From: Rhizophagus irregularis
Lineage: Eukaryota
DNA length: 64,000 nt
Direction of reading: 5' to 3'
Assembly (NCBI RefSeq): GCF_026210795.1
Contig: NC_089432.1
Coordinates: 3,906,001-3,970,000 of the forward strand
Program-made: the position numbers and the translations under genes
Notes under the pieces: model-generated
Told to the model about the DNA's origin: nothing
Databases searched by the model: none
Seen by the model: the letters and a program-made list of their open reading frames with translations, nothing else
Shown: in pieces, positions 21,499 to 60,352 of the stretch
How the letters are laid out: each line of letters opens with the position of its first letter
How positions within the stretch are numbered: position 1 is the stretch's first letter

Positions 21499-21533
21499 CT
21501 TTTCCGTCTCTCTCTCTTCAGAGCCAAGACTCT

Positions 21534-30615: not shown

Positions 30616-30746
30616 AGTAGAGGGCTTTGAGTTGGAAATATATAAAATATAAAATTTTATTAGTAGCTTGTATTATTTTTTAAAAATAATAAAAAATTAT
30701 TTTCGTCGAAAATTTTCATTTTTGAAAAATTCAGGAGAGAGTTACT

Positions 30747-31040
30747 ACTGGTTAAAAACTAATATATCAGGTAGCAGATATGTATCAGATATGTACCTGA
30801 TATGTGTAGTATTAATGCTGAAAATCGGGTACCCAATATGTGTAAGATATGTGTAAATATATATATTATATACATATCGGTACCCGATATGTATATGATA
30901 TGTAAATGATATGTAGACGATATATATATTTACACATATCTTATACATATCGGGTACCCGATTTTCAGCATTAATACTACACATATCAGGTACATATCTG
31001 ATACATATCTGCTACCTGATATATTAGTTTTTGATCAGTA
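30747..31040. mobile_element. Foldback MITE related to the CACTA-type MITE at 33164
   Basis: ~130-bp inverted arms (actggttaaaaactaatatatcagg... / ...cctgatatattagtttttgatcagt). Shares catatcgggtacc and gatatgtgta units with 33164-33440. Exact left end ambiguous. Confidence 0.8.
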
Positions 31041-31049
31041 GTAGCAGTG

Positions 31050-33163: not shown

Positions 33164-33440
33164 CACTGGTCAAAAAATGATCTATCCTACACATATCCTA
33201 CACATATCTTACACATATCGGGTACCTAAAATGCGGAAAATCCTACACATATCCTATACATATCGGGTACTTATATATATCCTACATATATCGGGTACCT
33301 GATATGTGTATGATATGTGTAGGATATATATAAGTACCCGATATGTATAGGATATGTGTAGGATTTTCCGCATTTTAGGTACCCGATATGTGTAAGATAT
33401 GTGTAGGATATGTGTAGGATAGATCATTTTTTGACCAGTG
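33164..33440. mobile_element. CACTA/EnSpm-type foldback MITE (277 bp)
   Basis: Ends cactggtcaaaaaa / ttttttgaccagtg; ~129-bp near-perfect arms; 3-bp TSD ttg at 33161-33163 and 33441-33443. Confidence 0.92.
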
Positions 33441-34609
33441 TTGGTGAAATGAACAACTTTTGTTAAGCTTAGAATGGTGATTATTAAGCTAGATTTTTTG
33501 TTATTTATAAATTTTGTTGAATTTTTTAATTATAGTGCTAATAAAAAAAATTTTTTTTATTAGAATAATATTATTAGGTCTATTTGGGCGTTATAAATGA
33601 GGTTTAATTGCAAAAATAGTTAAATATTATGTTTTTATTTGTTTATTTAAATTAGACATTTAATGCTTAATTCTTAATATTATAGTAATCATGTAAATTA
33701 TTATAACATTAAAAAAAACTTTAAAATTTTTAATTTTAGTTCGTTTAACAAGAAAATAAAACAAAAATTATTTATTCATAGAAAAATTCTTATTGACTAT
33801 TAGGTCTATTTACTTTGTTAAGTCATAAATACAAATAGTATAATATGAATAAGTAAAATATTTTTTTATATATATAAAAAGTATCTAAAGTAGCGTTAAA
33901 ATAAAAGATATTTATTGAATATTTAAAAAAAATAAGCAAAAGAATAAGGTTAAATAAATTTTCTTAATTTTTATTAGTTTGTTGTATTAAAATAACCATA
34001 TAATTGACTACTTTCTTTGGCCAGATGCAACCGAATAAAGTGAAGTTTTTGACTTTTAAAAGGTTTAAAAATATTTTTCAAACCTTGAACGAACATGTTT
34101 ACTATTATTGGAAAAAATGTTACATTGCATAAATATGGTGTTACCTTTGACCTAAAAATTTCGATTTTAATGTAATTTAGGCCGGCATTACGAATTCGGC
34201 CAGAATTAAGAAAATTTCGGCCAGAATTAAGATCTGAAAATTGTCGATTTTAGCCATTTGTACTAACTTTGGCCAACCTTAAGTTTACATATATACTATA
34301 TGCCATATAGCCATACTGTCCCAATAATTTATATTGAGATATCATAGTACAAAAAATCTCCCTCTAATTTTTGGGAACATTTCCACTGACTGATAATAAT
34401 TTAAAAAGTTCTATAAATATGAAAAATAAGCAACTAGAAACTCTTAGTATTTTAAAATAATACCAAAAATATGCAATTTAATTATTTTACATAGTATAAA
34501 ATTTTCTCAAAATTAAGCATTATAAAATTCTTACATCATAAAATTTTTCTATGTTGGCTAAGCACCTTGGTACCTTACATATATAAGCATTTTCCGGGGT
34601 CCTGCTAGC

Positions 34610-35146
34610 ACCACCTACCTCCGGGTCTACGACCCGTCGCAGTACCTATATGGCCCCTATGGGGCTCAGGTATCCTCCATATATACTACCACCATGGCCA
34701 CAGCTGGCGCTGGTCACACTACTTTCCAACTCCTTTTTTTATCCATTTTTTCTTATACATAAAACTACTATGACCACTATGACCACTATGACCAGACTAC
34801 TAAAAAGTGGATAAAAATGCGAATAAAGCCAAAATCAGACAGAATATCCGGTCATAGTACTGGCCACAGTTCGAAAAACTTATGATAATACTATGGCCAC
34901 CTTAGTTAGCCCCTCAGGCTCTAAAACCCGATTTAAGCTATGACCACCCTTTATCTACATATCTGAGACACCGAACTATGCCACCGAACTATGACCACTG
35001 AACTATGACCACCGAACTATGACCGCCGAACTATGACCACCCTTTATCTATTTACCTGGAACACCGAACTACGACCGCTGAACTACGACCACCGAACTAC
35101 GGCCACTTTCCCCGTCAGAAAAAATAAGTAATTGAACAATGGGTAT
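34610..35146 (+). repeat. Left TIR of the Maverick-like element
   Basis: Reverse complement of 49682-50250. Begins accacc; contains 9-bp actatgacc and 14-bp gaactatgaccacc arrays. Confidence 0.95.
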
Positions 35147-35240
35147 ACCATAAGTAATATACAATAATGAACTTACACGCAGCCACTTCTCTTGCCAAAG
35201 ACCTTGGTCTCGATCTTGTAGACATTTATGGATTTCATAA

Positions 35241-36212
35241 ATGGATCCAAATGCAGGCATCGCCCTCAACGACCCGGATATAGTAGCAGAAATAGTCAGA
35301 AACCTTCCGGCCAAAGAATTCGGAAAGCACCTCAAGAGGACCCTGAACAATACTAATATAGGTAGGAGCTGATGATGCGTCGTCATCTTAGTAGCTCTCA
35401 ATATGTTAGAATTTGGGAATGCGTACAATCATCAAAAAATTTTGATAAGGTTAGAATTTGATTTTGCGTAATTTTGATTGGATTTTAGGATGGTAAGATG
35501 TTGGATTTGCTTATTTTTGGTATATTTTTGGAAATAAGTAATAATAATTAATTTTATTTAACGATCATCTTAAAATAAATTTTTTTTTTTCGAAAAAAAT
35601 CTTTTCTGTATTGCATACATAAAGTTTCATTGGAAATATGGTAAAGAGTGATTGGCTAACATAAATACGTTACTCATATTGTTAATGCAAAAAAAGTAGT
35701 ATGTATATGTGGGAAAGGAATTAAATTAAACCACAGGTATGAAGAAGATTATTTAAATAGACATGTAGCATGTTCAGGATGTAAAGCAGACGAAGACAGA
35801 GAACAATTTGATATAACTAATAAAAGAGCCAATTAAAATTTTAAAAACTGACTTGAAGTTAGAGGATTAAAATGTGTATTTTGTAAAAATTTCAGGGGTT
35901 AGGAGCTATAAATGCGTACTGATCATAGTCAAAAGTGCTGCGTACAGCTAATAGTAAATTTTTTTTTCTGGACCTTACCTATATCAGTATTGTTCGGGGT
36001 CCTACCTCAAGATAAACAGACTCTGGTACAACTGTTGTAAAGCCGAGTTGTGGAAGCGATATGAGAAAGCCAAGAAGACATACGACAGGACAGTAGAAAA
36101 GAAGGAAAAGCGGGGGATGATCTTGGTCAATCATTTGAGGAGAAGGGTATTGGAAATCGTGAACTTTATGAGCTTAATTGGAAGGAGTATCAAAAAGCTT
36201 GTAAAGAGTTAA
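35241..36212 (+). pseudogene. F-box-like protein, interrupted by the 35337-36003 insertion
   Basis: Rejoined frame MDPNAGIALNDPDIVAEIVRNLPAKEFGKHLK|INRLWYNCCKAELWKRY fits the F-box pattern. Confidence 0.65.
35337..36003. mobile_element. 667-bp non-autonomous TIR element with 8-bp TSD
   Basis: TIRs aggaccctgaacaatactaatataggta / tacctatatcagtattgttcggggtcct. Exact TSD acctcaag at 35329-35336 and 36004-36011. Confidence 0.9.
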
Positions 36213-36324
36213 CGGACGCTAGAAAAGAGCAAATGATGGTAAGGTGGGCTCTTGAGCGATGTGGATTTTACTAAATATACGTGGATTGAAAAGGGGAAAG
36301 GAAAGATTTAGAGCAGTCGTAAAT

Positions 36325-36792
36325 TAGAGCTCCGAACGAGTCGAGTCGAGTCGAGTTATATGTAAACTCGATTCGACTCGAGTTAAATCGAGTCAAGTCG
36401 AGTCGAGTTAAAATTATAAAAATATAAACTTGACTCGATTCGAGTCGAGTTGGCCCGTCAAACCGAATCGAGTCGAGTCGAATTAAATCACGTGATTTTA
36501 TTCGGCTATGTCGATCATTTCCTTTTTTTGGCGATAGCTGTTCCACAAAATTCCATTTTTGTAATTTTCAAAAATTTTTCGTCTCGGATTTTGTGTAACA
36601 TAATTTCCAAAAAAGGAAATTCCATAAATTTGGACGGAATTATGTTTAATTCGGCTTAACTCGACTCGACTCGATTTTATTAAATTATTAACTCGACTCG
36701 ACTCGAATCATTTTGATTGTAATTTTCAACTCGACTCGACTCAACTCGACTCGACCAACTCGCAAGTCAACTCGACTCGTTTCAGAGCACTA
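36325..36792. mobile_element. hAT-type MITE with gagtc/gactc pentamer arrays, related to the 11550 MITE
   Basis: TIRs tagagctccgaacgagtcgag / ctcgactcgtttcagagcacta. Shares cacgtga, tgtgtaac and aaaaaaggaaat with 11550-12077. TSD imperfect (tcgtaaa, offset by 3 nt). Confidence 0.8.
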
Positions 36793-36981
36793 GACTCGTA
36801 AAGGTTTGTGGTTTATAGTTTTTTTTTTACCCCTAGAAGATAACCAGATATAACTAGAGGATCGCAGAACCGCAGAACCGCAGGACTACAGGACTACAGG
36901 AGGGTAACCAGGTAGGAGTGCAGATCTTTGGAAAAAATATTCGGCAATTGAAGATTAGGTAACTATAAATTAGTACTCGAT

Positions 36982-39461
36982 TTGATAGAACAAAAAATAA
37001 CTGCCCAAGTTCCAGCAATCTTTAACCCCAACAACCGTTTCTTTTACGATGACCTTCTTAAAAAGTGTATAGGTACACACACAAAAGAAAGCGTCAATTC
37101 AGCAATCTCAGCTTCTGTGGCTTTCATCACCACGAAGTCCGGCATGTGGATCAGAAAAAAGAAGGCTTATAATAGAAGCATATACTTCGAGTTTGCTGCA
37201 GATCTCAAGGGAATTTCTACTAAGCACAAGGTAAGTATTCAGTCAGATGCAGGAGAAGATGATGGTATGACCACATCTACTAAGTTAAAGGACCTTCTTA
37301 TCCATGCCTCAGTTACAAAGATCTGTTATACAGATGTAAACTTCATGCCGTATCCCCCAAATGCACCAAAGTATAATCCTGAATTCTTCAATCTCTTCCT
37401 AGGTTTCAGGGCTCAACCTGCTAAGCGCATCAAACTAAATCTAGTTAATTCAATTATCCGACACGTTCATGAGGTATGGTGTGCAGAGGATAAGCAATTA
37501 ACCATATACATCCTCAACTGGCTCGCATTTCTAATTCAAAATCCAGACAAAAAACCCGGTACAGCAATTATCATGCGCAGTCCCCCAGATGTGGTAAGAA
37601 TATCTTAACCGATTTTATCGGAGAACGTATTCTTGGCCGTGAAAACTTCCTCTCCACTACGCGTTTTGAAGATATAATGGGAAGGTTCAATGCAGCTGTT
37701 CGTGCCAAAAAACTCATCATCCTCAATGAATGTGATATGACAGGTAAGGAATGGCATGGAGCAAATAACTGACTTAAAAGTTTAATCACTGAGCCTTACA
37801 TCTCTATTGAGAAAAAGGGGATAGATGTGAAGGTTATTGATGACTTTGCTGGCTACATGATCCTAAGTAATCATGCTATGCCAATCTGCATAGAAATGGG
37901 AGATGAAAGATTTATAGCCCTCAATGTATCAGACAAATATAAGGGCAATAGAGAATACTTCGGTTCTCTCGTAAAAGTATTAGAAAATCTGGATACAGCC
38001 AGTTCCTTCATGTCCTACCTACTTAGCCGAGACTTAACTAGCTTCAATCCCCGATCTATTCCTGATACTCAAATAAAACGGGAGTTAATCGAAGCAAGTA
38101 TCCTGAATCTCTAGCGTTTTATACAATATTACCTTGAAATGATGTGGCCCGACAATTGCGACACACTTGAAATCCTGTGTACAAATTTCTATAGCACTTA
38201 CCAGAATTGGTGCAGTGAAAAGGGTGAAAACAAAACACTTAGTGATAATAAGTTTGGTATGGAGATTAAGCAATTCATTCCTAAAACTCGCCCAAGACGT
38301 TCAGGTGCTCGAATAAACTATTACATACTAGATAAAGCAAAAATTGCAAAGAATTTTAGTAGAGTAATCCAGGAGACACAAGACATACAGGATGTACAGG
38401 TAGATCAAGAGGAAGTGGAGCTAGTTGTTGAGAAACCTGCTGAGGAAAAACCCGCTCCTGTCGAGAAGAAGCCTACTAAAGAGAAACCAGTTTTCAAAAA
38501 GACTCCACCACCAGTACCACTTAAGCCCGAGTGCTTGAAGATAAAACCCGTACCTGTTATCAATGAGGATCCTATTCCTGAAGAATCTCCAGCTTCTATA
38601 GAGTCAGATACTGATGAACCTATAGATAGCTTCTCAGACTGTTATCTATCTGATGAGGAACCTAATTAAGAAAATGAGCCGCCTGCTGAGGAACCTGCAT
38701 TTAAAGCTGATGATGACTACGACGTTTTAGATGACTTGCTATCTGACTCAGATTCTACAATCGCTAACCCAGTTCTTGAGCAACAACCCGAGTCACCTGC
38801 AGAATCTTCTGCAAAATCTGAATCCCTCGCAGATTCCAAATCTTCTACAGAACCTGTAGTAGAACCGGCTCCCAAAGAGCAACCTATCCCAGAACCCGAC
38901 ACAGAACTAGAAGTTGACTGGGACCCTGAACTAAAGGAAGGTACTCAAGCACACTGGGCTTGGCACGAAAGACACTGATGGGATCGTAAGCCATGGGTCA
39001 AGAATTCAAAGGACCAGGTCTTCAATGATCTCTATAATACAGGTAAGGAATTATGGGCTAAGTACCAAGACGCGTCAGACGAGTATGACTGGGAAATACT
39101 CGCGTTTGAAGTAGAGGAATGTCCCACAACACGTATTGAGGACTAGTACCAGTACTACTTTATGGAAGTAGTAGACCACTTCAAGGACTGGATCGAATAT
39201 AATGGGCACTTACCTAAAACACCTAGCTGTAAAAAACTCGCAGATCTAATAAGAGTATACAAGGAGGATCGTGATGCCGAGATTATCCCTACCACCTCTG
39301 GTTATGAAACTATGAAGATGAATAAGGGTAAAGCACGAGAAATCCCAGAGGAACGTCCAAAAACTGATATGGAACGTAAATGGAAAGCCGCCAATGGAAT
39401 TGTCGACGACTGGGATGAAGAGGATCTTGATTGTGTATGCAGCAAGATTGACTCCTTTTAA
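36982..39461 (+). pseudogene. SF3 helicase (D5/DUF5906-like) with winged-helix region and long P/E-rich tail
   Basis: FNLFLGF; ILNWLAFLIQNPDKKPGTAIIMRSP..CGKN (Walker A across a frameshift); LIILNE; LKSLITE..IEKKG; ILSNH..GDERF; YQNWCSEKGE..FG. Several stops. Confidence 0.85.
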
Positions 39462-39544
39462 TAAGATAAGCACTTCTTAGTTATCTTATATTTTTTGTAT
39501 AAAAAACCTATATTACAACTGAACACAATTCATAAATACATCAA

Positions 39545-41423
39545 ATGGTTTATTCAGAGATTGTCCGTGCTTTACCTACAAGACCAGATATCAAAGAATT
39601 ACAGTATTCAGGCGCAAGATTTTCCAGAGGAGCAATAGCAAGACTTGGACAGCGACTCCAATCCCGGTATCCGACACATAAATTTCAGATTCTGCTCCCT
39701 ATGAAAACTGGAAACCCGGTGGATGGACATCAGGAAACCAACCAGCCAGCCTCTTCTCACTCTTGGACCACTACAACGAAGCACAACTACCAGATGACGC
39801 AGACCCTAATTATTTTGAATGATTCATAATTTATGTGAGAGATGCCTACCGGTTGCAGGGAGTTGCAACGGGGAGCTAAATGATTGCCTGTATGAACGCC
39901 TGAAATATATCTACAGCACATTCTCTAAAATGCCAAAGTCAATCGAAAAGCCCGAGTATATCAAAAAGGCATTAGGTCTCAATCGTGATGCTCCAATTCC
40001 AGTCTCATATATGGATAAGGTTGAACAACTTGCAGGAAGCTTTGCACTTAATATTGTAGGGGATTCCACTTGAATTTCTAAAAGCAAATCTGACAGACGT
40101 GCAACACTTATCCTGTCTGAAGGCCACTACTCTCTTGCACTGAATCCCGGAAGACTCCATCCTAGCAAATTAGATAGAAAACAAAAGTCTTTCTTTGTTT
40201 ATTGTGAAGATGGGGTTAATAATGTAGTAACAATATACAATGGTAAGACAGTTAAGTCTCTTACAGTTAGACAGTTTCAGAAAGGTAAGAACTCTGATAG
40301 TTACTCCTTCATCCCTATCGAGAAGAATTGTAAAACTGAAATATATGAAACACTTGAGGAAACATACCAGAGGATCCATGAAGAGCGGGATTCCTTCCTA
40401 CAGGCTACAAAGAAGTTCGGTTTAGGAATCAACTTATCTTACCACAACTGGTCGTACAAGAGAACTGCACTCTGGCTTTTTGAACGGTTTAGTGTAGGGG
40501 TTCCAGCAAATGATCCTCTTGACCCAGTCGAAGCAGAGTGGATAAGTGATGCAATGATGGGAGGTCTTATCTAGGCAGATAATGAATGGAAGGGTTATGG
40601 AAGGCAATACAACATGACAAGTTTGTATCCAAGTATTCAGCAATCAAATGCAAACTTTCCAATCCGACAAGGTAAGTTTCAAATACTCAAAGACTTTGTA
40701 GACCACAGAGGTTATGCCTTGTATGGATTATTTCGTGCTAGCTCCCAGGGAGCGCCCAAGGGCAAGGTAAGTGGTAATGACATTCTCTTCTGACAGAATA
40801 AGAGGGGAGTCTATACATTCATTGACTTACAACAAGCAAAAAAACTTGGTCTCAATATACAGTTAATCCAGGATGGAAAGCCAAATGCCTTGATATATGA
40901 TAGAGAAGCAAGAATTCCTGGGACTGTAATATTTGGTGAGTATGTTCACTTTCTCTTCAATATAAAGAACCAGGGTGGCGTGGCCGGTCGTGTTGCAAAA
41001 AGAGTTCTCAATACACTATGGGGAGCACTCTGCCAAAGGAAACACAATTACAAGATACTCACCACAGATCAAACAGATCCATTCAAGTTTCCAGAAGGCC
41101 ACACACTTGACTCCATCGTACCAGTAAGATCTGACCAGTGGCAATTCCAGTTCACAAACCCAGGTAGTCCCTTCAAGGGTAAGTATCCTAGGATCGCTCC
41201 ATTCTTATTAGCATATGGACGGAAGACGACTTCAGAGTTATTAGAACCATATAAGGATAAAGTACGACGCATCCATATAGATGGATTTATTCTAGAGGAA
41301 CAGCTGAGTAGTCCTACACTTATTACTTGTCCAGAAAATGCATCCAAAGCATTGAAAGCTCTCAAGTTTGAAACTGCAGAATACTGCCATGTGAAAAATG
41401 CAAACAAGGTTATCTGGACATGA
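39545..41423 (+). pseudogene. Compact family-B DNA polymerase, protein-primed type (~625 aa reconstructed)
   Basis: AMMGG; motif A YNMTSLYPS (40608-40634); motif B AKRVLNTLWG; motif C RIHIDGF. N-terminal NDCLY...GHY resembles an OTU-type catalytic pair. Stops and frameshifts. Confidence 0.8.
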
Positions 41424-41536
41424 TTGCCAAGAATGCGGTTGGGTTTACAGTAGGTATATATATTTTTTCTTGCTTGAATGTAAAATCAATTTGAAGATTC
41501 CTATTTATTACAAAGTACAAAAAAGTATAAGGAATC

Positions 41537-42007
41537 ATGTCAACATATACCGAATTAGCAAGCATTATTAACAGCACTGACAGCATTAGTGATGAAGTTA
41601 TTTATGATGCATCATGCAATCAGTTCACCATTGTCTCTGATGAAACTGTCTTCAAGATTATCCGTGCATTGAAAGACACTATAGTAGTCACATTAGTATC
41701 TGGGTTTAGCAAAACCAGCTACCTTGTCCAGGATCATGTGAAGTATATCAAGAGAATCCAGACAGCAAAGTCTTCTGTATCATATGTGAAGTTCGTAGCC
41801 AGAAAACTCTTCCCAGATAATGCAGCATATACTGCTAAGATAGCAAAGATTCGTGAATCATACAAGAATAAACAAGCTCTTTTAGACAAACTTAAGGCCC
41901 TCTTCGAGTTGTATTATAATGTGACTAAGGACTCATTAACAGGTCCCCCAAAGCGAGCTGTCACTATGAATGAGGCTGAGAAAACCTTAGCAGAACTTCT
42001 TGTATAA
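41537..42007 (+). CDS. Hypothetical protein (156 aa) of the Maverick-like element
   Basis: Intact ORF; preceded by ATTTGAAGA and followed by a T-tract, like its neighbours. Confidence 0.65.
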   Translation: MSTYTELASIINSTDSISDEVIYDASCNQFTIVSDETVFKIIRALKDTIVVTLVSGFSKTSYLVQDHVKYIKRIQTAKSSVSYVKFVARKLFPDNAAYTAKIAKIRESYKNKQALLDKLKALFELYYNVTKDSLTGPPKRAVTMNEAEKTLAELLV

Positions 42008-42100
42008 GCGGCTTCTGTACGAATTTAGTTTATATTTTTTATCCATTTGTAATGGGCATACAGTAATTGAAGATGGCTATAGTATAAGTAACATAACATC

Positions 42101-42517
42101 ATGTTGGACCGATTACCAGTAGAAATAGTCGAACGCATTGTTGCAAAGATCCCAGATACTGACCTTATTGCAGCGAGTAAAGTAGATAGTGTGTGGTGGC
42201 AGGAGGTTCGTCAAGAAGCATATAAGAGATGGAAAAATTACGCTACTACAATTGGGCATGTCCAAGCTCTTGGAAAGCCGTTTGAAAAAGGGAATATTGA
42301 CTGGATATCATTTGAAGATGTAAACGACTTCTATAAAAGATGGATAGACCGCCTCACCGAGGATCAGCTTTATATTATGGAGAAAATACTTAGGAATGGG
42401 ATGGTCGTAGATCTCCAAGAGAGGGAAACCATAGAGTATGCATTAAGTGAACAAAGATGGGGAGGCGACCCTTGGGGACTGAACTGGGAGTGGAACGAAT
42501 GGACTCAACAGGAGTAG
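42101..42517 (+). CDS. F-box protein (138 aa)
   Basis: N-terminal LDRLPVEIVERIVAKIPDTDLIAASKVDSVW matches the F-box consensus. Confidence 0.8.
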   Translation: MLDRLPVEIVERIVAKIPDTDLIAASKVDSVWWQEVRQEAYKRWKNYATTIGHVQALGKPFEKGNIDWISFEDVNDFYKRWIDRLTEDQLYIMEKILRNGMVVDLQERETIEYALSEQRWGGDPWGLNWEWNEWTQQE

Positions 42518-42523
42518 CTTATT

Positions 42524-42722
42524 TATCGGGTATCCTCATATTTCTTGACAAGGACTGATGACCATATAACCTTATCATCAGGTATCCTTGCATTTTTTCG
42601 ACAAGGACTGATGACCATATAACCTTATCATCAGGTATCCTTGCATTTTTTCGACAAGGATTGATGACCATGTAACCTTATCATCAGGTATCCTTGAATT
42701 TTTTCGACAAGGATTGATGACC
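42524..42722. repeat. 53-bp tandem repeat (~3.7 copies), each unit a stem-loop
   Basis: gacaagga recurs at 42547, 42600, 42653 and 42706. tcatcag..tccttg pairs with caagga.ctgatga. Confidence 0.92.
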
Positions 42723-42787
42723 GTGTCACTTGGTTATTGTAAATTGAAGAAAACTATTAGGTATGTAGATACGTACAGAAAAAAGAC

Positions 42788-43366
42788 ATGTCTTACCCTT
42801 ATATAGCTAACCCTATAACTGGACGTCCAATTATTATCGGTGGAGATACCTTTAATCGAATAGTTATGGAATCCCATGATTATATCGATGGAAGGCTTGT
42901 CCGTAGACAAACTGCACCTCCACCTGAAGAGCAACCTGTATATTTAAATACAGATACAGGACGTTATGTTCGACGTGGTACTAGAACATATCATAGACTG
43001 ATTGAAAGTGACTATGAAGTAGTTGAGGATTACTACCTTGTCCATTATGAAGAAGAGGCGCTTATAGAGGAAATCATCAATGAAATACGCTATAATGAGG
43101 AAAATCTTGATGGCCAGCGGTTAACTTTCAATGATATACAACAAATCAGGACTGCTATTCAGGCTGACCAAGATGAATATGATGATTTTATCTTACAGCA
43201 GGATATGACTGATATGACAACTATCGGTCCTTCCGGTCGTCCACAAACTTTGGAGGACCATACCCCGAGACTTGCAGAGCTTAATATTGAGTTGTGTAGG
43301 GAATGTCTCATGCCTGTAAGCCCAAGTGACTTAACGGACAAGTTGTGCAAGGACTGCTCCGAATAG
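42788..43366 (+). CDS. Protein with two NPxTGR-type repeats (2C_adapt-like, common in large DNA viruses) and a C-terminal CxxC..CxxC finger
   Basis: IANPITGRPIIIGGDTFNRI; YLNTDTGRYVRRGTRTYHRL; CREC...CKDC. Confidence 0.6.
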   Translation: MSYPYIANPITGRPIIIGGDTFNRIVMESHDYIDGRLVRRQTAPPPEEQPVYLNTDTGRYVRRGTRTYHRLIESDYEVVEDYYLVHYEEEALIEEIINEIRYNEENLDGQRLTFNDIQQIRTAIQADQDEYDDFILQQDMTDMTTIGPSGRPQTLEDHTPRLAELNIELCRECLMPVSPSDLTDKLCKDCSE

Positions 43367-43411
43367 TTACTTAATTTTGAATAATTCTTTTTTACATAAA
43401 GAAAGATAGCC

Positions 43412-43972
43412 ATGTCAATATCAATCGTAATAAACCAGTGCCAAAACTGTAGAGTAATCACTCCAAAAACAGCATATAGAGGATTATCCAGTGTATTATA
43501 CAGACAGATTATAAAGAAGATTAGTGATGAGAATGACCTTCTACAAGCCTTGGGACTTGCTAGGGATAAGTTAGTTCAGATCATTCGTCAGGGAAGTAAT
43601 GTGGACTTTACACAATTGTTTACACAAAGACTGGATATGAATATTATGGATGGAGAGCCATATGATGATATTAGGAAGTGGCTTCTCGAACAGCTTATAG
43701 CCATAGGTTGTGACAGTGGAGAAATTGCTTTATATCAATTTCTATGAGATACATATCCAGATGGTATTGACGAGCCTTTCACTACATTCTATGAGAACTA
43801 TGTAAATCATATAAGTAATCCAATGACTAAGAATTTTGCTTCTCGTGCTTTAGGAGCAATAGGGTTGAAGGCTAAGATGTTAAGGATTGACTTTGAAGGC
43901 CGTAAAAAAAGTGCTATGATTCTTAGAGCTTCTGCAGACGAATTACTTGATATTCTCACAAGATACTATTAA
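43412..43972 (+). pseudogene. Hypothetical protein (186 codons) with one internal TGA; C-terminus may be a winged helix
   Basis: The frame continues past TGA 43745-43747 (FTTFYENYVNH..KNFASRALGAIG) to TAA 43970-43972. Confidence 0.55.
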
Positions 43973-45179
43973 TCCCTACTTGTAATGCTCGACGGTCCAT
44001 ATGGCTCTTAGAAAAGATCTGTAGAAGGACTTCAATACCTTCTATTATTTGTTTATTATCCAGAGGGCGACTAGACTTCAGGGCTTCATATCGGGAGAAT
44101 AACTCCTTCACATTCTCAGTTTTCAGAGTTTCAGTCTTTGCAGTCCTACCCTGTACTTTTGCTAAGAAATCCTGAAAGTCAGCTTCTAGGGTCTTACCAG
44201 AGAGTCCATAAGCTTCTCGAAAGACATATTTAATCCAGGTATCTGCATTCTTGGCTAAGACACCAGGTACAAGTAAATGTTGACGTTCTTTAGGGAATGG
44301 AAATACCCGAGCAAATTCAATCAAGTGTCCACCTTTTTTTGCTTCAAATACAGCTTTCTGACCATAGGGACTAAACTTAGATCGAACTGTGATTGAACTG
44401 GGTTCAGACTGAGATCGAACTGGGTTCAAACTTGGATCAAACTGAGATTGAACTGAGATCGAACTAGGATTGAACTGAGATTGCTCTGTGATAGAACTGA
44501 GACTAGTATCCCATCTTACTCGAATGGACAGTGGATCACTTTTGGACCATCTAAGATCAAACACTACAAATTCACGTTGCAGAGTAAGATCATCAATTAC
44601 TGGTGCTAATGACTCTGATTCTTCTGTATATAGGCGGATGATTCTCTTGGTATCTGTAAGGCTCCCATGACCTCCATGCAGTGAGATGTAGTTAACATTT
44701 TCTCGAATAGCCTTAGGAATGGCAAAGAATCTTCGGGCTACATAAATATATGAAATATTTTTGTGTCGTCCATGTGTAAAGTAACCAGTGATAAGATCCT
44801 GGATTTTTTTAGGTGCATCCATCAGATCCTCGAAGATTACCACAGTAGCTTTAGTAGGGTCGAAGGAGTCAATCTCTGGAATCTCACTATGGGTTACTGC
44901 AGTGAATGGGATCTTCTCCTCTTTGAAAAAATCATGTACAACTGCCCACTTCGGCTCATCAAGATATCTGCTAACTAAAAGTACTGCATCACATAGTACA
45001 TACCGATTACCATCCTCCTTTGCTTTCTTGTCACCCATTAACAAATTAATGATCATAGTTGTCTTACCTGAGTCTGAGCTACCTGCTACAGCTAATCGAA
45101 AGGGCCATAATGGAGCAAACTCATTGCCTTGTCTTGAGTCGGTCGTGTACTCATCCAAATTGTATACATAAAGATCCAT
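43956..45179 (-). CDS. A32/FtsK-HerA-like DNA packaging ATPase
   Basis: PFRLAVAGSSDSGKTT (Walker A); VVIFEDLM (Walker B); FTHGRHKNISY...IPKAIRENVNY, typical of Polinton/NCLDV packaging ATPases. Confidence 0.9.
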   Translation of the reverse strand: MDLYVYNLDEYTTDSRQGNEFAPLWPFRLAVAGSSDSGKTTMIINLLMGDKKAKEDGNRYVLCDAVLLVSRYLDEPKWAVVHDFFKEEKIPFTAVTHSEIPEIDSFDPTKATVVIFEDLMDAPKKIQDLITGYFTHGRHKNISYIYVARRFFAIPKAIRENVNYISLHGGHGSLTDTKRIIRLYTEESESLAPVIDDLTLQREFVVFDLRWSKSDPLSIRVRWDTSLSSITEQSQFNPSSISVQSQFDPSLNPVRSQSEPSSITVRSKFSPYGQKAVFEAKKGGHLIEFARVFPFPKERQHLLVPGVLAKNADTWIKYVFREAYGLSGKTLEADFQDFLAKVQGRTAKTETLKTENVKELFSRYEALKSSRPLDNKQIIEGIEVLLQIFSKSHMDRRALQVGINSIL

Positions 45180-45210
45180 TTGAATTTTATTCTAACTTAG
45201 TTTAAATACT

Positions 45211-47423
45211 ATGTCGACATCAACACCAATTCCAGTTTATACTCCTTCAGAACCTACTGGACCGCCTCCTGCACACTTGGTCAATGAAAAAGATGATGAT
45301 GAATTAGTTAGAATACTAAAGGCTCATGCAAATTTATTGACTACCAGGGGTCGTTTAACTGTTGATTCAGAGATACAGGAGGCAAATAATCAAATTAAAC
45401 ATATTATTAATATATTAATAATGTATCGCTGTAAAGCAAAACATGAAGAACTTGGTATTACAAAAGATTTGTTAGTTTTTGCACAAGGTAAGATAAATGC
45501 ATTTGATGAAACGTTTACTAATTTAGAACGTCAATTAGTTATTATACGTGCTGCCAATGATAATTTCATAGAAGAAAACCATAACCTGCAAAGAGATTAT
45601 GATACTATGGTAGAGCTTCGTCGACAGGCTATAGGTGAACGTAATCAGGCATGACATGAACGTAATGTATTACAAGCAGATTATACTCAAGCATTAAGGG
45701 ATCGTAATGAGGCTCAAAATGCTGAGAATCGTGGTAATATCCTTTTAAATCATTGGCGGCTGAGGGCTACTCGGACTGGAGGACAACTTGTATTGGTTAA
45801 TGCGCAACTTGGACAGGTTAATGCACAGCTAGCACATGCTAATAATAGGGTGCGTTTTGGGATTCAGACATTAGGGAGACTTAAGAATAGACTTTTCCAA
45901 CAGATAGCTGCTCTTAGAATTCAGGTACAATGGTTTCAAATTAGACAATTGAACCCTCCTCCACCTATATTAAACAATCCACTAGAGACGATATGGCTAC
46001 CACTGCGATAGGATTACCGATTTTTGAGGGTAAAGCAACTGATGATATTGATACATTTGTTAGGCTTTATATGGGTTATCTTGATACTATTAATCTTAAT
46101 CCATACGCTGCTGGAGGGCCACCAGAATCTTGGAAAAGAGCTATGGGTATACTTAGAAGCTGCATGGCTGGTGAAGCGGCTGAATGGTTTGATCGAGAAA
46201 TTACAGGAAAAAATTGGAAACTTTCTGGTATCACTTCAAGAGGTGGAGCTAATTTAGCTGCTTTTGTAGCATTAGTAATACCAGAAGGTGCAGGAGGACC
46301 AAATGCAGGTACCTATGTAAATGGGTCTGAAGCACATGTTTATGCTACAGATGCAGCTAATGCATTAGTAACTATTAGAGCAGCATTTATTCCTACCCAT
46401 GATTTAATAGGTGGAGATAAAGCTTGGGGAAGAGCTGATGCTCGTCCGACAGATAGAGTTGCTCCAGCTACTGCAGATGCTGATGTTGCTGCTGCTAATA
46501 ATCATCCTATAGTTTTTCCAGGTATTAAACCTAACCAGGCGCTTTATTGGCTTAGAACACAATTTCCAACTATTTTAGATGAAAAGAAACGTATCCATTT
46601 TAACAGTCTTTATCAGGAAAATGAGCCAGTTGATGCATTTTATGGAACTGTAAAGAGAGCTGGAAAATTACTAAAACTAACTGATAATCTTATTATTGAC
46701 CAATTCTTTAGAGGTCTTTCGGCTGATAATATTTTTGAAGCAGAAAGGTTTAGTAATCTTAATCCTGATGACTTGGTTAAACATCTGAGAAATTTAGAAC
46801 GGAGAAGGGCTGAAATGCGCTTGGGGTTACAAGATAGAAATCGACGACTTCAAGCAGATTATAGTGATGTAACTCAACCTCCGTTAGGAAAACAGGAACC
46901 TGTCGTACTGACATCAAAGTCATCTGGGGTTACTCAAGAACAATTACAAGAGTTACTTAAGGCTCAAGCTGAGGAACTTACCAAGAATTTTCAGGTGCAA
47001 TTTAAACAATTACAGGCTCGACCAGTTCGTAATCCACCAGTCTATAGACAGCAGATTAAACCTGTTCAACCAAAACCACAGAGACGTATTGTTCAGGATC
47101 ATCAGGATCCTGATTGGGATGATGGTTATGTAGAACCTGATGTTGGTGATGACCCTGATGCTCCTGAGTGGACTTTGGATGATCATCAAAATGCTATTGA
47201 TCTTATTATGGGATATAAACGTGGGACGTCTAAAATACTTACAAATCAACTTCAGAAGGCTAAAGATAAACGTGATGATCTGGATTTGGCCTGAGCAATG
47301 AGAAACCTTGATCTTAACAATGATGCTATGGACATTGATACTGTGAGTTTTGGTGAAAAGGTAAAATTGAGAGAAAAAGATGGTGATGTCTATATGGTTT
47401 GTGTTGGGTCAAAAAAAAAGTAG
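45211..47423 (+). pseudogene. Coiled-coil N-terminal region plus Ty3-like Gag capsid protein (capsid domain starts at MAT, 45993)
   Basis: LPIFEGKATDDIDTF; LRSCMAGEAAEWF; LYQENEPVDAFY; IDQFFRGL; MDID. In-frame TGAs at 45652 and 47292 and a frame change near 45993. Natural stop TAG 47421-47423. Confidence 0.8.
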
Positions 47424-48160
47424 GTTCAAGTATCTCAAAACTTCTTAAGTCGTCCCCAAATAAGACAGCAGTTAGCTCTTCTAGTGTGCCATTGAAAGGC
47501 AAAGCAACCCCTGTTAAGATTTCTGTGAAAGTTACTGGTAGTAAGTCTACACCTGCAAAAGCTGTTACTAAGAATGACTTATTAAGCCTGTTAAGGTCTG
47601 CAGACTTTAGGAAATTACTCCGTGAGATTCTTCAGGAGGAGTTATTGTCTGCTAGAAAAGTCACAGAGATTCCGGAGAACCTAGTTGAAGAGGAACAAGA
47701 AGAGGATATCAGGGTAGATGATCCTATGGATATTGACATAGCTCGTTTAGAGAATACTAAAGATCTTTTAGCACTGGATAAAAAGGTTAATGGAATAGCA
47801 ATTCAGTGTTTAGCAGACACTTGTGCTAATGCGTCTTTTATTTAGAGAGAAGCTGCTAAGGAATTAGGGTTGAATATCGACAAGAGTATTACATACAACA
47901 TATCTGGTGCTTCAGGAACAGGTAGGACATTCGGCATGGTAAAGGGAGTGTTAATCAAACTTACCCCTGATTATGCTATCACTGAGGATCTTGCAGTTTT
48001 AGATGGATACAAGCATAGGGAGATTGGGTTAAGCCGAACGTGTCTGAAACGTTACAATTATGATGTCCATGAATCACGTGAACATATAGCCTTTACCTGT
48101 GATGGGAAGAATGTTTTTATCCCGATAGTTCCTGATGCTAATCGAGGGGATAAAAAATAA
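47399..48160 (+). pseudogene. Retropepsin-like aspartic protease in the -1 frame of gag; one internal TAG
   Basis: VNGIAIQCLADTCANASFI*REAAKELGL..ISGASG..IGLSRTCLKRYN. ORFs 47399 and 47870 are in the same frame. Confidence 0.78.
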
Positions 48161-48185
48161 GACCCTTTAATTCTTCTATTTTTTT

Positions 48186-49313
48186 TTATTCCCAAAATTT
48201 GCGAATTAAGTCAGGGACATCCTCCTTCAACCGGTCAGCAGGTTCCCAAGTAGCCTCAGTGTCTGGATAGCGCTCCCACTTAACCAAATACTGGTCTTGA
48301 CCTTTTCTAATGCGATGCCAAAGTATCTGCTCAGGAACAAATCTTTCAGGTTGTCCTCTTATCACAGAGTCAGGTGGAGGCTTTTCATTAATAGGAACTA
48401 CTTGTAATTCCTTTCGGGTATATGCACATCTGGATACACCTAATCGACCATGTGGTCCATTAAGGAGATATGTAGGAGGCTGTTCGGGTGAGAGTATCAT
48501 TTTTTTGATTATACGAATGTTTGGGTTCCATCTTATATCTCCTGTACAGAATTTTCTGTGAAGTTTGTTACCAAGTACAGAAATAGGTTCATCTAACTTG
48601 ACTCTGACATATGCTTCTTCAAAGAGGAGATCCGTCTTTTTTGACACTTTAGGTGACCCTGTCAGAATGTCTGGGGGATTTCTCTGCCAGAGTTCATTTA
48701 CTTTACTCACTATATTATGGAAATCTTCTGACCATTTCACGGATGTCACCTCGGTTTTCAACTCCTGTGCTACTATTCGTTTAAGAAGGAGTTCTTGGAT
48801 GGCTTGGATAGCTCTTTCAGCATAAGATTGCTGTTTATGCTTTCCTGGCTCTCCGAACCTCATCATTACCCCTAGGCTGTTCAGAAAAAAATCACGTACC
48901 TGGTCGTTAGTGAATTCTGATCCAGAGTTCATCTCCAGTCGGTGTGTTAGAGGCTTGATACGATTTCTTCTGTAGATTTTGACAAACCCGTTTAGAACTC
49001 TATTTGCAGTCTTATCCTTTAGGGGTTCTGCATCGACTCTCTTTCCTGCAACTTCCACCACTACGAGAAAATAGTGGAATCCTTTGGGGTCAACTGGCAT
49101 CTCTGCAAGATCTGCCTGATGTGTTGCATTTGGTTTCCATACAATTACCTTTGGGCGTTCTGTTGACTTTTCCTTTAAAGGCTTTTTGTATAGGTTGTAG
49201 TGCTCTTCACCTTTTAAAATTTGTGCTGGTACTCTGGATAGACTGTAGTACTTGTAGTAATTCTTTAATTGTGACATATTACGACAAATTAAAGGAAAGA
49301 TTTCAGACTTCAA
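48186..49313 (-). CDS. RVE (c-integrase-type) integrase with C-terminal chromodomain; second catalytic Asp appears mutated to Asn
   Basis: HQADLAEM; LEMNSGSEF; AERAI; chromodomain PEQILWHRIRKGQDQYLVKWERYPDTEATWEP. Confidence 0.92.
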   Translation of the reverse strand: MKSEIFPLICRNMSQLKNYYKYYSLSRVPAQILKGEEHYNLYKKPLKEKSTERPKVIVWKPNATHQADLAEMPVDPKGFHYFLVVVEVAGKRVDAEPLKDKTANRVLNGFVKIYRRNRIKPLTHRLEMNSGSEFTNDQVRDFFLNSLGVMMRFGEPGKHKQQSYAERAIQAIQELLLKRIVAQELKTEVTSVKWSEDFHNIVSKVNELWQRNPPDILTGSPKVSKKTDLLFEEAYVRVKLDEPISVLGNKLHRKFCTGDIRWNPNIRIIKKMILSPEQPPTYLLNGPHGRLGVSRCAYTRKELQVVPINEKPPPDSVIRGQPERFVPEQILWHRIRKGQDQYLVKWERYPDTEATWEPADRLKEDVPDLIRKFWE

Positions 49314-49642
49314 ATCTCAAGATAACACGATTTTACTGTCTAAAGTGCAAGAAGGAAACTGAGACTGCTAGTGAAATACAAGATATGACTACAAATGGGC
49401 GTTACCGGCTGCATGGTGACTGCACAATTTGTGGTATGCATAAGAATACTTTTACTGGAGTAGACTGGGTGATCAAGAAGAAGACTAAGGAGAAAAAGAA
49501 AGAAACCGCTGCTAAGAGACATCAGACGGCTTACAATCGGCAATGCAAAAAACTTGGACAGAAAATCTTAGATTCTGATGACGCGTGTAAACAGTATATT
49601 GATAAATGCCTTAAGGAGGCAAAAAAGAGGAAGACGGATTAG
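49004..49642 (+). CDS. Basic Zn-ribbon protein (DUF5679-like); the real coding part is probably only the last ~110 codons
   Basis: FYCLKCKKETE....TTNGRYRLHGDCTICGMHKNTF plus a Lys-rich tail. The 5' part overlaps the integrase antisense. Confidence 0.65.
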   Translation: MQSYPLGVLHRLSFLQLPPLRENSGILWGQLASLQDLPDVLHLVSIQLPLGVLLTFPLKAFCIGCSALHLLKFVLVLWIDCSTCSNSLIVTYYDKLKERFQTSNLKITRFYCLKCKKETETASEIQDMTTNGRYRLHGDCTICGMHKNTFTGVDWVIKKKTKEKKKETAAKRHQTAYNRQCKKLGQKILDSDDACKQYIDKCLKEAKKRKTD

Positions 49643-49681
49643 TACTGCCTTCTAAACTTATCTGGATATGCTCTATTCCTA

Positions 49682-50250
49682 ATACCCATTGTTCAATTAC
49701 TTATTTTTTCTGACGGGGAAAGTGGCTATAGTTTGGCGGTCATAGTTCGGCGGTCATAGTTCAGTGTTCCAGGTAAGTAGATAAAGGGTGGTCATAGTTC
49801 GGCGGTCATAGTTCGGTGGTCATAGTTCGGCGGTCATAGTTCGGTGGTTATAGTTCAGTGGTCGTAGTTCGGTGGCATAGTTCAGTGTCCCAGGTATGTA
49901 GATAAAGGGTGGTCATAGCTTAAATCGGGTTTTAGAGCCTGAGAGGCTAACTAAGGTGGCCATAGTATTATCATAAGTTTTTCAAACTGTGGCCAGTACT
50001 ATGACCGGATATTCTGTCTGATTTTGGCTTTATTCGCGTTTTTATCCACTTTTTAGTAGTCTGGTCATAGTGGTCATAGTGGTCATAGTAGTTTTATGTA
50101 TAAGAAAAAATGGATAAAAAAAAGGAGTTGGAAAGTAGTGTGACCAGCCATGGCCACTGTGGCCATAGTGGTAGTATATATGGAGGATACCTGAGCCCCA
50201 TAGGGGCCATATAGGTACTGCGACGGGTCGTAGACCCGGAGGTGGGTGGT
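49682..50250 (-). repeat. Right TIR of the Maverick-like element
   Basis: Reverse complement of 34610-35146 with extra 14-bp units; ends ggtggt. Confidence 0.95.
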
Positions 50251-50276
50251 GCTAGCACCTCTCACATCCAGCCCGA

Positions 50277-54820: not shown

Positions 54821-55013
54821 TTGTTAATAAATTTTCTATTTCGTTTTCAAATGGTAAAATAAATTTTATTTCTTTATCTTCAAATAATACGCAATGATAA
54901 TTTATATTTGTATGAATTATAAATATATATATTTCTAATCCTATTCTTTCAATCATTTTTTTTTTTATCTCGTTATTCATTACTATTTATTATTTTCTAA
55001 ACTTTTATCTTTC

Positions 55014-56441: not shown

Positions 56442-56473
56442 CTTTAATGTCTCTCCATTATTATGGCCAAGAC

Positions 56474-60000: not shown

Positions 60001-60352
60001 TAATTGACCTTACAACTATATCTAACAGTTTTTCCCCTTCTTTTCTTATTTTTTCAAATTCTCTATTTCTTTTCTTTTTACTAGATGGATAACTTTCTTC
60101 CCCATCCTTTCTTGTTAGTATTATATATTCCATTAATTTTACATATGTATTTCTGTTATAACTCATCGCTTCTAATATTACTTTTTGAAAAATCTTCCAA
60201 AATCTTTTAAACCAATCTTCTATCTCTATTTCATCAGTACTATAACATTTTAGACATGAAGGGTCCACTTGATATTCTTTTCTTAATTCATTATGTTTCT
60301 CTATTTCATGTCTATTCTTAATCTCTTCTAACTCATCGTATATATCAGACAT
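57030..60352 (-). pseudogene. Gag with long acidic N-terminal extension and two CCHC knuckles; frameshift near 57342
   Basis: MPTFSGKEDEDVNDW; CLRGTALQWY; QEKNESVEEY; CYECNEEGHIRPEC; CERCGLTGHFIREC. Confidence 0.88.

Follow-up and report, generated by a model that had tools for sequence, protein, structure and literature searches.

Which capsid a Polinton of arbuscular mycorrhizal fungi uses is the question raised by a DNA element of Rhizophagus irregularis, since the Glomus Polinton is listed as still lacking a major capsid protein (MCP) in PMC7805220. We analyzed a window of 64,000 nucleotides (NC_089432.1, positions 3,906,001 to 3,970,000) that contains the element, and compared it with relatives in 21 metagenome loci (L numbers), the Gag of which is 31–55% identical over the best segment. 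The features of the element, in window positions, are:

34604..34609, no strand, left flanking 6-bp duplication GCTAGC, palindromic, likely a target site duplication (TSD)
34610..50250, element proper, 15,641 bp, bounded by terminal inverted repeats (TIRs) and the 6-bp flanking duplication
34610..35146, forward, left TIR, starts ACCACC, 14-bp subrepeats inside
35329..36005, no strand, secondary MITE-like insertion with 9-bp duplication, splits a small ORF remnant
36317..36795, no strand, secondary MITE-like insertion, 479 bp
36952..39461, forward, D5-like SF3 helicase (Pfam DUF5906, Pox_D5), frameshift and stops, start uncertain
39545..41423, forward, Polinton-type PolB (Pfam DNA_pol_B_2), broken in this copy
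41537..42007, forward, 156-aa accessory ORF without assignment, a relative sits elsewhere in L018
42101..42517, forward, F-box-like ORF (Pfam F-box E 0.011 here, E 3.4e-6 in L010)
42788..43366, forward, 192-aa ORF, 2C_adapt-like motif, C-terminal Cys pairs
43412..43972, forward, 185-aa conserved ORF, helical domain and winged helix, one stop in this copy
43956..45179, reverse, A32-like packaging ATPase (Pox_A32 E 1.6e-8), family-specific C-terminal extension
45211..46011, forward, coiled-coil ORF in matrix position, 19-nt overlap with the CA start, stop at 45652
45993..47423, forward, Gag CA, NTD with an insertion of about 110 aa and CTD, followed by a linker, stop at 47292
47408..48160, forward, retropepsin ORF in the -1 frame, Lys-rich basic segment, helix and retropepsin, stop at 47843
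47411..47419, forward, A9 tract ahead of the gag stop, in -1 register, where frameshifting or slippage is predicted
48179..48187, forward, T9 tract behind the protease stop, where the coiled-coil/CA/protease unit is predicted to be terminated
48186..49277, reverse, RVE integrase with chromodomain (rve E 1.4e-6, Chromo)
49331..49642, forward, DUF5679 zinc-ribbon ORF, conserved neighbour of the integrase
49682..50250, reverse, right TIR
50251..50256, no strand, right flanking 6-bp duplication GCTAGC

The TIR arms align over 545 nt (34603–35146) and 577 nt (49682–50257), the latter figure counting the GCTAGC flanks, which bears out an earlier note on this DNA that had described a 15.6-kb unit with TIRs of about 550 bp and gctagc flanks. 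Since GCTAGC is palindromic and no copy of the site without the element was seen, TSD and TIR tip are only partly separable. Long TIRs with a presumed 6-bp TSD, an A32-like packaging ATPase and an RVE integrase are thus all found; TIRs, 6-bp duplication, PolB, RVE-chromodomain integrase and A32 are shared with Polintons/Mavericks (Polintoviricetes), including that of Glomus intraradices (= R. irregularis). From 36969 to 49642 neighbouring ORFs are at most 270 nt apart, and nearly all coding space is accounted for, as the note had stated. The window copy is dead, with premature stops in the helicase, PolB, the 185-aa ORF, the coiled coil, CA and protease.

PolB, SF3 helicase, A32-like ATPase and chromodomain integrase, all read at first from the letters alone, were each borne out by Pfam matches. 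The separate helicase sets the element apart from Polintons; its relative in L002 is intact (780 aa). DNA_pol_B_2 matches at cutoff in the window and in L002, where PolB is 624 aa long, suggest a PolB of the protein-primed type, and its motifs A, B and C could be located in the window element. Judging from motif spacing, its exonuclease is probably reduced. OTU-like Cys/His motifs were also spotted by eye in the PolB ORF. The ATPase is 54–56% identical to four relatives with conserved Walker motifs, while the integrase has its second Asp replaced by Asn in the window copy and an intact DDE in relatives.

Between ATPase and integrase, the earlier note had placed a single Gag with an aspartic protease at 45211–48160. 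Gag and protease are both present, but the cassette consists of three ORFs in three frames, namely coiled coil, CA and protease. The CA ORF holds a PMDID-like motif and a terminal KKK and no CCHC knuckle. The retropepsin is corroborated by PF13650/PF13975 matches on relatives (PF13650 above cutoff in L005, L016, P0202 and P0205) and by the alignment, across which the catalytic Asp of its D-T-C triplet is kept. Of 18 gag/pro junction rows, 14 have an A-AAA-AAA slip site in -1 register. The distances given for the cassette, 31 nt head-to-head with the ATPase and 25 nt tail-to-tail with the integrase, are exact; its flanks are merely these intergenic stretches, and no LTR with PBS was found there. 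No direct repeat surrounds the cassette (best direct match between the flanks 13 nt), tblastn searches with both Ty3 pol ORFs of the window and with a LINE RT gave no RT match in the element or the 21 loci, and a YxDD-type motif is likewise absent from these loci, in agreement with the description of a cassette devoid of LTR, PBS, RT and TSD. CCHC knuckles are present in several related Gags and in no Polinton-linked one (0/8 Polinton-linked tree rows); among the 21 loci only L016, which is not integrase-linked, has one.

We compared the CA fold by VIA-align and Foldseek. Among 48,161 chains, the best 26 are all capsids of retroviruses or retrotransposons or capsids derived from them, and the CA model aligns with MLV CA (Z 8.8, rmsd 5.5, 186 aligned) and HERV-K (Z 9.5, rmsd 3.1, 81 aligned), confirming the Ty3/Arc-like fold that had been suggested for 45993–47423. 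A PEG10 CA profile also matches (E 0.0016), and Retrotrans_gag matched 13 of 34 family members at E ≤ 0.1. The likeness seen by eye to the two Gypsy Gags of the window is real (HMM E 3.4e-10 and 4.9e-6) but distant (hhalign probability 30%), and the insertion of about 110 aa splits the CA NTD. Hence the Gag CA fold and the retropepsin of Metaviridae are both found: two-domain CA, retropepsin, -1 gag/protease slip and PMDID-like motifs are shared with Ty3/Gypsy and other Ortervirales, whereas, unlike Ty3/Gypsy, the element lacks RT, RNase H, LTR, PBS and CCHC knuckle and has the NTD insertion, a coiled coil as its own ORF and a DNA replicon. A single origin of the Polinton-linked Gags, recovered in 27% of bootstrap trees, is compatible with the tree.

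Synteny in other copies had been named as a check, and sister as well as distant copies retain gag-pro at the same position. The ATPase is head-to-head with the cassette in 9/9 loci extending beyond the coiled-coil ORF, and the integrase tail-to-tail in 7/8 loci extending more than 100 nt beyond the protease. L002 carries helicase, PolB, ATPase and CA; since it overlaps L001 at 99% and has a 659-nt inverted repeat in common with L015, a second TIR-bounded lineage is covered, with gaps of at most 229 nt. An Entrophospora gene model (P0182) fuses Gag, protease, this integrase and PolB. As family members L001/L002, L005 and L009 are naturally intact, experimental tests are within reach. Codon comparisons suggest that gag-pro is mostly under purifying selection, with dN/dS of 0.18 (L006/L008) and 0.23 (L006/L012) for CA, 0.19 for the coiled coil, 0.29 for protease, 0.15 for ATPase and 0.21 for integrase. 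The dN/dS check proposed for gag thus gives values well below 1 for the most part, but not for CA in two pairs with L001 (0.82 with L003, 0.78 with L015); a higher ATPase value also occurs (0.56, L009/L010).

From gene content, conserved order, CA fold, the missing zinc knuckle, slip site, selection and the T-runs described below, we consider it probable that in a Glomeromycota Polinton lineage gag-pro replaces the jelly-roll module and that the linear DNA of the element itself is carried in the Gag shell, which the ATPase likely fills. Unlike Polintons, the element has Gag and retropepsin, and no jelly-roll gene was recognised in it, neither of the double kind nor of the single kind found in pentons, nor was a cysteine protease for maturation. 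The simplest reading of an intact ATPase kept beside the sole capsid gene is that the two form one morphogenesis module; nine MCP-less elements lost ATPase and protease together (PMC4028283). Since a conserved retro-type capsid and protease stand beside the motor in distant relatives, packaging of DNA within the Gag shell is likely. PolB and helicase would replicate the DNA starting at the TIR ends, and the integrase would insert it, making the 6-bp duplication. CA would be translated from its own ATG, and a minority slipping at the A-tract would yield a Gag-basic-protease product by which the shell is matured. Binding of nucleic acid may fall to the Lys-rich segment in place of the RNA-binding knuckle, the coiled coil may be scaffold or spike, and the retained A32 ATPase would likely fill the shell with linear DNA. 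RNA is the usual assembly substrate of Gag shells, and we know of no A32 ATPase that works with one. The DNA that caulimoviruses and foamy viruses carry in shells of Gag type is made by reverse transcription. No Gag or packaging ATPase is known from Bidnaviridae. They are a precedent for a Polinton-derived PolB with an unrelated capsid and, unlike the element, parvovirus-derived ssDNA viruses (bioRxiv 2024.03.18.585575). If the shell holds DNA, the virion would cross two virus realms, as a motor-filled Gag capsid with replicative dsDNA and no RT, Gag shells could take about 14.5 kb of pumped DNA, and fungi would have in this element a candidate for a small dsDNA virus. The capsid question of the Glomus/Rhizophagus Polinton, as put in PMC7805220, is answered in that a capsid gene is present, and of retro type.

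The remark that no such element had been described probably goes too far: under 'MELD viruses (and related elements)', the legend to Fig. 5 of Starrett 2021 (PMC8502044) includes the labels 'Matrix/Capsid/NC/Pro' and S3H, and the legend to Fig. 3 names a Rhizophagus PolB. Adintovirus-like PolB, Gag-like matrix/capsid/NC, retropepsin and D5-like helicase are common to that element and ours, and the four labels fit the layout of coiled coil, CA, basic segment and protease. We think there is a good chance that the two are the same Polinton family. The legend leaves the host of that element unnamed, 'gag' and 'retropepsin' appear once each in the text, and legend and section 3.4 neither discuss the element nor analyse its synteny, selection, fold, frameshift or transcription. 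Later papers, where they deal with the Glomus Polinton, still treat it as capsid-less. A32s from Glomus and Rhizophagus cluster with those of Maverick-Polintons (bioRxiv 2026.06.19.733378).

Alternatively, gag-pro might be a stable accessory that shelters RNA or integrase-DNA or restricts host Ty3, in a capsid-less Polinton with an otherwise employed ATPase. Domesticated Gags (PEG10, Arc, PNMA2, Ty1 p22, Drt2) are among the fold matches and RT-less gag-pro relatives without a seen integrase exist (L016); since related CCHC-bearing gag-pro genes (L016, P0338) are also without RT in the parts read, gag-pro may serve a function of its own, apart from the packaging of Polintons. We regard this as unlikely, because it leaves unexplained an intact A32 ATPase head-to-head with gag across lineages, as well as the retention of protease and slip site, which in retroelements serve particle maturation.

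The T-runs concern transcription. Coding strands hold 3 sense-strand T6+ runs versus 21.0 expected (0/300 shuffles as low), gag-pro 0 versus 12.6, and no sense-strand T6 interrupts the coiled-coil/CA/protease unit across 2.95 kb; A6+ runs are not depleted (100 versus 90.5 expected). T6+ runs lie within 100 nt of 24/32 gene ends versus 4.1 by shuffle. The window element alone gives a weak signal (2 versus 3.8 expected), and the control, the window's Ty3 ORFs, has the opposite pattern; this control is underpowered (1.5 expected) and includes no host genes. This pattern is a new observation for the family. It fits polyT termination as described for ASFV (PMC10965686), the polymerase itself not being identified by it, and its resemblance to asfarvirus-type terminators is a hint of a helper among the giant viruses. 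An endogenous region related to asfarviruses, with genes for RNA polymerase and capping, is present in R. irregularis strain 4401 (PMC10640383). We give slightly less than an even chance to transcription by a non-self-encoded oligo-T-terminating polymerase, the most plausible source being a giant virus of these fungi that resembles asfarviruses. Through the terminator pattern, a link to the giant viruses of mycorrhizal fungi, which have been elusive, can be tested. Mavirus-type virophages likewise have a short PolB with reduced exonuclease, a separate S3H and an RVE integrase (bioRxiv 2024.03.18.585575), and may have giant-virus polymerase dependence in common with the element. Mavirus differs in that its capsids are of the jelly-roll type and its protease is a cysteine protease. 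The complete picture, a chimeric dsDNA virus lineage of mycorrhizal fungi with Polinton replicon, integrase and motor, a retropepsin-matured Gag shell, no RT and the life of an asfarvirus-like-polymerase satellite, is put forward tentatively.

With a helper polymerase suggested by the T-runs and the region in strain 4401 (PMC10640383), the element might also ride, transpoviron-like, in the particle of a helper giant virus, the Gag shell being an intracellular replication or storage compartment. We find this improbable, as the element retains its own packaging ATPase, whereas transpovirons lost the structural module (bioRxiv 2024.03.18.585575).

A divergent jelly-roll capsid, in an unrecognised small ORF or in trans from another Polinton class of the same genomes, appears very improbable. 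Missing MCPs of other protist Polintons were found later (PMC7805220), and among the small ORFs folding covered the 185-aa one and not those of 156, 192 and 106 aa, which were not seen at a fixed position, in a search sample without a whole host genome. Against it, the ORF inventory of the window element and of the L002/L001/L015 lineage, both fully covered, leaves none longer than 200 aa without an assignment, and the reported absence of a double jelly-roll MCP is upheld in these two lineages. A search for hidden double jelly rolls had been advised as well: the only conserved unassigned ORF (185 aa), modelled by AF2 on its L005 relative (pLDDT 78.8), consists of helices and a winged helix rather than a jelly roll, with winged-helix structural matches (Z 6–8), and is likely a DNA-binding protein. 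No MCP was reported from five R. irregularis genomes in PMC10640383, which missed A32 and D5 too, so that this negative is of limited sensitivity. An adenain/Ulp1 cysteine protease had no Pfam match among 27 window and 11 locus ORFs, absence from Pfam not being proof; protease matches among those locus ORFs were confined to four protease ORFs.

Nested insertions are common in the window, two of them within the element, but a one-off LTR-retrotransposon fragment that landed in this copy has a negligible probability and was rejected, as the cassette keeps position and orientation in lineages of 31–55% Gag identity, has intact frames, purifying selection and neither LTR nor RT in relatives, and shares its T-run pattern with the Polinton genes. 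Both insertions, 35329–36005 and 36317–36795, are skipped by the sister copies.

The element family is a real, old and selected chimera. In its replicon, integrase, ends and ATPase it is a Polinton; it is neither one of the jelly-roll viruses nor an LTR retrotransposon. The window copy is 15,641 bp long, begins with the bases ACCACC and is bounded by terminal inverted repeats (TIRs), whose inverted alignment gives arms of 545 nt (left) and 577 nt (right). Pfam assigns to it a D5-like helicase, DNA_pol_B_2, Pox_A32, rve together with Chromo, an F-box-like ORF and DUF5679. Arm alignment and Pfam hence agree with the earlier note on this DNA, which had described a unit of about 15.6 kb with TIRs of about 550 bp, GCTAGC flanks, PolB, SF3 helicase, A32-like ATPase and RVE-chromo integrase; the intergenic gaps that it gave, 31 nt head-to-head between ATPase and cassette and 25 nt tail-to-tail between protease and integrase, are both exact. 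The cassette, described there as Gag plus retropepsin at 45211–48160, does contain a capsid (CA) fold and a protease, but it consists of three ORFs (coiled coil, CA and a −1-frame protease), with the coiled coil in a separate frame from CA. The features are:

34604–34609 and 50251–50256, GCTAGC flanks
45211–46011, coiled-coil ORF, whose 3′ end overlaps the first 19 nt of CA in a different frame
45993–47423, CA ORF, for which a structure model was made

The window copy is dead: stops interrupt six of its ORFs, the second catalytic Asp of its integrase is an Asn, and it carries two insertions, both skipped by contigs from sister copies. Without these insertions, the element measures about 14.5 kb. 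The closest named homologs of its CA ORF are Rhizophagus irregularis proteins with at most 91% identity over the full query, which makes this species the very likely source of the window. Contigs too short to inform on copy number or expression span the entire element in all four runs, and a further set was similar, with one run patchy. A MITE inside the element (35329–36005) and the sequence immediately left of the element (about 34567–34603) have similar GGACCC/GGGTCC ends, and the Polinton directly abuts such an end. A 53-bp tandem repeat with a T-run in every unit lies 3′ of the F-box ORF (42541–42729), and an 11-bp repeat within the ATPase linker (44374–44516) differs in length among relatives.

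The order ATPase–gag-pro–integrase, for which the earlier note had proposed a comparison with other Glomeromycota copies, is kept in metagenome loci. One metagenome scan yielded 21 loci, which DNA similarity sorts into about ten lineages. Upstream of the cassette, the ATPase is head-to-head in 9/9 loci reaching past the coiled-coil ORF, and the integrase follows tail-to-tail in seven of the eight whose sequence continues for over 100 nt beyond the protease. The eighth, L016, belongs to the CCHC-bearing relatives, and its protease is followed by non-coding DNA and no integrase. In locus L002, helicase (780 aa) and PolB (624 aa) are intact, a single frameshift interrupts the ATPase, and coiled coil and CA are present as well. 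The locus overlaps with L001 (99%) and has a 659-nt inverted repeat in common with L015. For this second lineage, coverage runs from one TIR to the other with no gap larger than 229 nt, and every unassigned ORF is shorter than 200 aa. R. clarus, R. diaphanus, Entrophospora and Diversispora have named homologs. One Entrophospora gene model joins Gag, protease, an element-type integrase and a PolB C-terminus, so that the linkage holds there in a different order. As the earlier note had claimed for the cassette, reverse transcriptase (RT) was found neither in the element nor in any of the 21 loci. Scans of IMG/VR with Gag, ATPase, a Gag alignment, a CCHC-type Gag, integrase and PolB returned no relative, and sequence searches of the PDB with PolB and ATPase no match. 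An integrase-like piece spotted by eye in protein P0333 found no support on testing. In L020 (150–1443), a truncated CA lies against an inverted helicase fragment, a rearranged copy. A second CA type occurs in R. irregularis-like copies (L013 2–1455, P0041, P0205); its coiled coil is 90% identical to that of the window, its CA only 44%, and P0205-type proteins have a closely shared linker and protease, which suggests that copies exchange CA domains.

The CA model, built from 34 sequences (pLDDT 69.5), was compared with 48,161 chains, and the top 26 rows were all retroviral, retrotransposon or derived capsids, some of the matches covering both domains. The match to MLV CA reached Z 8.8 (rmsd 5.5, 186 aligned, model residues 3–289). 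Since the match list agrees throughout, and not because of single Z values, which at 8–9.5 are modest singly, the predicted structure of 45993–47423 is a retro-type capsid fold, as the earlier note had anticipated. Foldseek gave PEG10 CA-CTD as best rows (E 3.5e-3) and no row at 1e-3, and a profile search with CA reached PEG10 at E 0.0016. The N-terminal domain (NTD) of CA holds an insertion of about 110 residues. A predicted complex of CA and ATPase, run without alignments, scored 0.00 and is informative neither way.

The coiled-coil frame is open into the same CA overlap in 11 of 13 rows examined. At the other end, the protease is encoded in the −1 frame relative to CA, and its relatives exceed the Asp_protease_2 cutoff and keep the catalytic Asp. 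An A-AAA-AAA in −1 register stands shortly before the gag stop in 14/18 junction rows; of the other four, one contig ended early and three reached an earlier stop. The −1 frame is open for at least 225 codons in 11 loci, and 9–14 Lys/Arg are found among the first 50 residues past the slip in all eight sequences. No consistent RNA structure was found 3′ of the A-tract, so that slippage may be either ribosomal or transcriptional. In L009/L010, the slip tract is accompanied by a protease-frame ATG overlapping the gag stop (ATGA; L009 3157–3174), a possible second route to the protease. Inspection by eye of the sequence upstream of the ATGs showed no common promoter motif.

The earlier note had seen no jelly-roll capsid ORF. 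For a double jelly roll this holds, as the element has no room for one. The sole shared unassigned ORF (185–197 aa) is predicted to form a helical domain and a winged helix (pLDDT 78.8). A penton among the remaining small ORFs (156, 192 and 106 aa) is unlikely. In the Atlas, all leads for the 185-aa ORF stayed below 0.9, and the 156-aa ORF had none.

We calculated dN/dS pairwise at unsaturated distances, setting aside pairs with dS of about 1 or more. The values for gag, pro and ATPase, a measure proposed beforehand, were mostly well below 1: CA gave 0.18 (L006/L008), 0.23 (L006/L012), 0.13 (L009/L010) and 0.43 (L007/L019), the protease 0.29 and 0.37, and the ATPase 0.15, the latter like the integrase (0.21) at dS near 0.96. 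Higher values were obtained for the CA of L001 (0.82 versus L003, 0.78 versus L015) and for the ATPase of L009/L010 (0.56, few changes). The coiled coil gave 0.19 (window/L013) and 0.77 (L009/L010, few changes).

In sequence composition, too, gag-pro obeys the rules of the element itself rather than those of the Ty3 elements, whether or not a helper exists, since one T-run pattern is common to gag-pro and the Polinton genes and reversed in Ty3 ORFs. Across 49 element ORFs (47 kb), sense-strand runs of T6+ number 3, where synonymous shuffling, done locus by locus, predicts 21.0, with 0/300 shuffles as low; the gag-pro module has none versus 12.6. A6+ runs are not depleted (100 versus 90.5). In the window's Ty3 ORFs, A6+ runs are the rare ones (10 versus 40.9; T5+ 12 versus 9.5), the coding strands at 18449–25631 and 53834–60355 (−) mirroring the Polinton's T-run avoidance. 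T-runs are not depleted in LINE and Helitron ORFs, and the window copy alone is weak (2 versus 3.8). A T6+ run occurs within 100 nt past the stop at 24/32 gene ends (shuffle mean 4.1, maximum 11 in 1000 rounds), a set omitting the CC (coiled-coil) and CA ends, since these lie inside the unit, as well as gene ends close to the edge of a contig. According to PMC10965686, the ASFV polymerase terminates at polyT of the non-template strand, and according to PMC10640383, R. irregularis strain 4401 contains a region related to asfarviruses that includes genes for a polymerase and for capping. Together with the T-run pattern and an element that encodes no RNA polymerase, this makes a helper giant virus a reasonable candidate, and we tentatively suggest, with slightly less than even confidence, that such a virus might transcribe the element genes.

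A direct donor of gag among the window's Ty3 elements is rejected in view of path lengths above 4 to the nearest tree row; in the CA tree (49 rows, midpoint root) their Gags form a distant outgroup. The eight Polinton-linked rows, all without CCHC, fall within a 31-row branch (95/97) and seven of them within a 24-row clade (99/96), and outside those clades fall most of the Gags that combine a CCHC knuckle with this NTD insertion. A single origin of the Polinton-linked Gags would be allowed (27% of bootstrap trees). Several of the outside Gags carry the coiled coil in the CA reading frame, and the simplest history would be that the Polinton lineage captured a gag-pro of this in-frame kind, then lost the knuckle and split off the coiled coil. 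RT is also absent from CCHC-type relatives where read (L016, P0338), and a search for long Gag-Pol relatives (955–2725 aa) gave a single protein, a Gag-Pro that lacks RT; as evidence this is weak. A broad Glomeromycota clade combines coiled coil, CA with insertion and protease, many members with a CCHC knuckle and no RT where read (L016 3–2215; P0338, P0223, P0235, P0237, P0171, P0177).

A T=9 Gag shell has an inner diameter of about 40 nm. By a rough estimate from such dimensions, 14.5 kb would fill close to half of its volume, a phage-like density, so that packaging would need a motor. We regard it as probable that the element's DNA is packaged in a Gag shell: the ATPase would load the DNA, the frameshifted retropepsin would mature the shell, integration would produce a 6-bp duplication, and a short PolB, with the helicase assisting, would carry out protein-primed replication in a mavirus-like manner (bioRxiv 2024.03.18.585575). 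If such packaging is true, the virion would be categorically new.

The earlier note knew of no description of such an element. It has probably been labelled once in a figure and never analysed in the searchable literature: within full texts outside subscription journals and Repbase, the one relevant mention was the legend of Fig. 5 in Starrett et al. 2021 (PMC8502044), where 'Matrix/Capsid/NC/Pro' and S3H are listed, and our best guess from this legend text is that the element labelled there belongs to the same Polinton-with-Gag family. As far as the accessible text of each source goes, PMC7805220 states that the Polinton of G. intraradices had yielded no MCP, the A32s of Glomus and Rhizophagus are placed close to Polintons in a 2026 preprint that does not contain the word 'gag', PMC4028283 contains neither 'glomus' nor 'gag', bioRxiv 2021.03.30.436303 reports recent Maverick activity in R. 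irregularis, and PMC11296320 and PMC5751038 add nothing on Gag.

Elsewhere in the window, the first Ty3/Gypsy element, with LTR copies near 16850–17952 and 27238–28341, carries a thymidylate-kinase-like P-loop domain fused after RNase H (19417–20070, −), a Pfam match below cutoff (E 3.8e-4). This domain is missing at the end of the second Ty3 pol ORF (55014–56507). A Helitron Pif1 helicase ORF and LINE-like fragments, the latter by eye, occupy 3693–6344 (+), 10330–16529 (−) and 29003–30064 (−). Two near-perfect palindromes with arms of 136 and 129 nt, built of 11-bp repeats, lie at 30743–31043 and 33164–33440.
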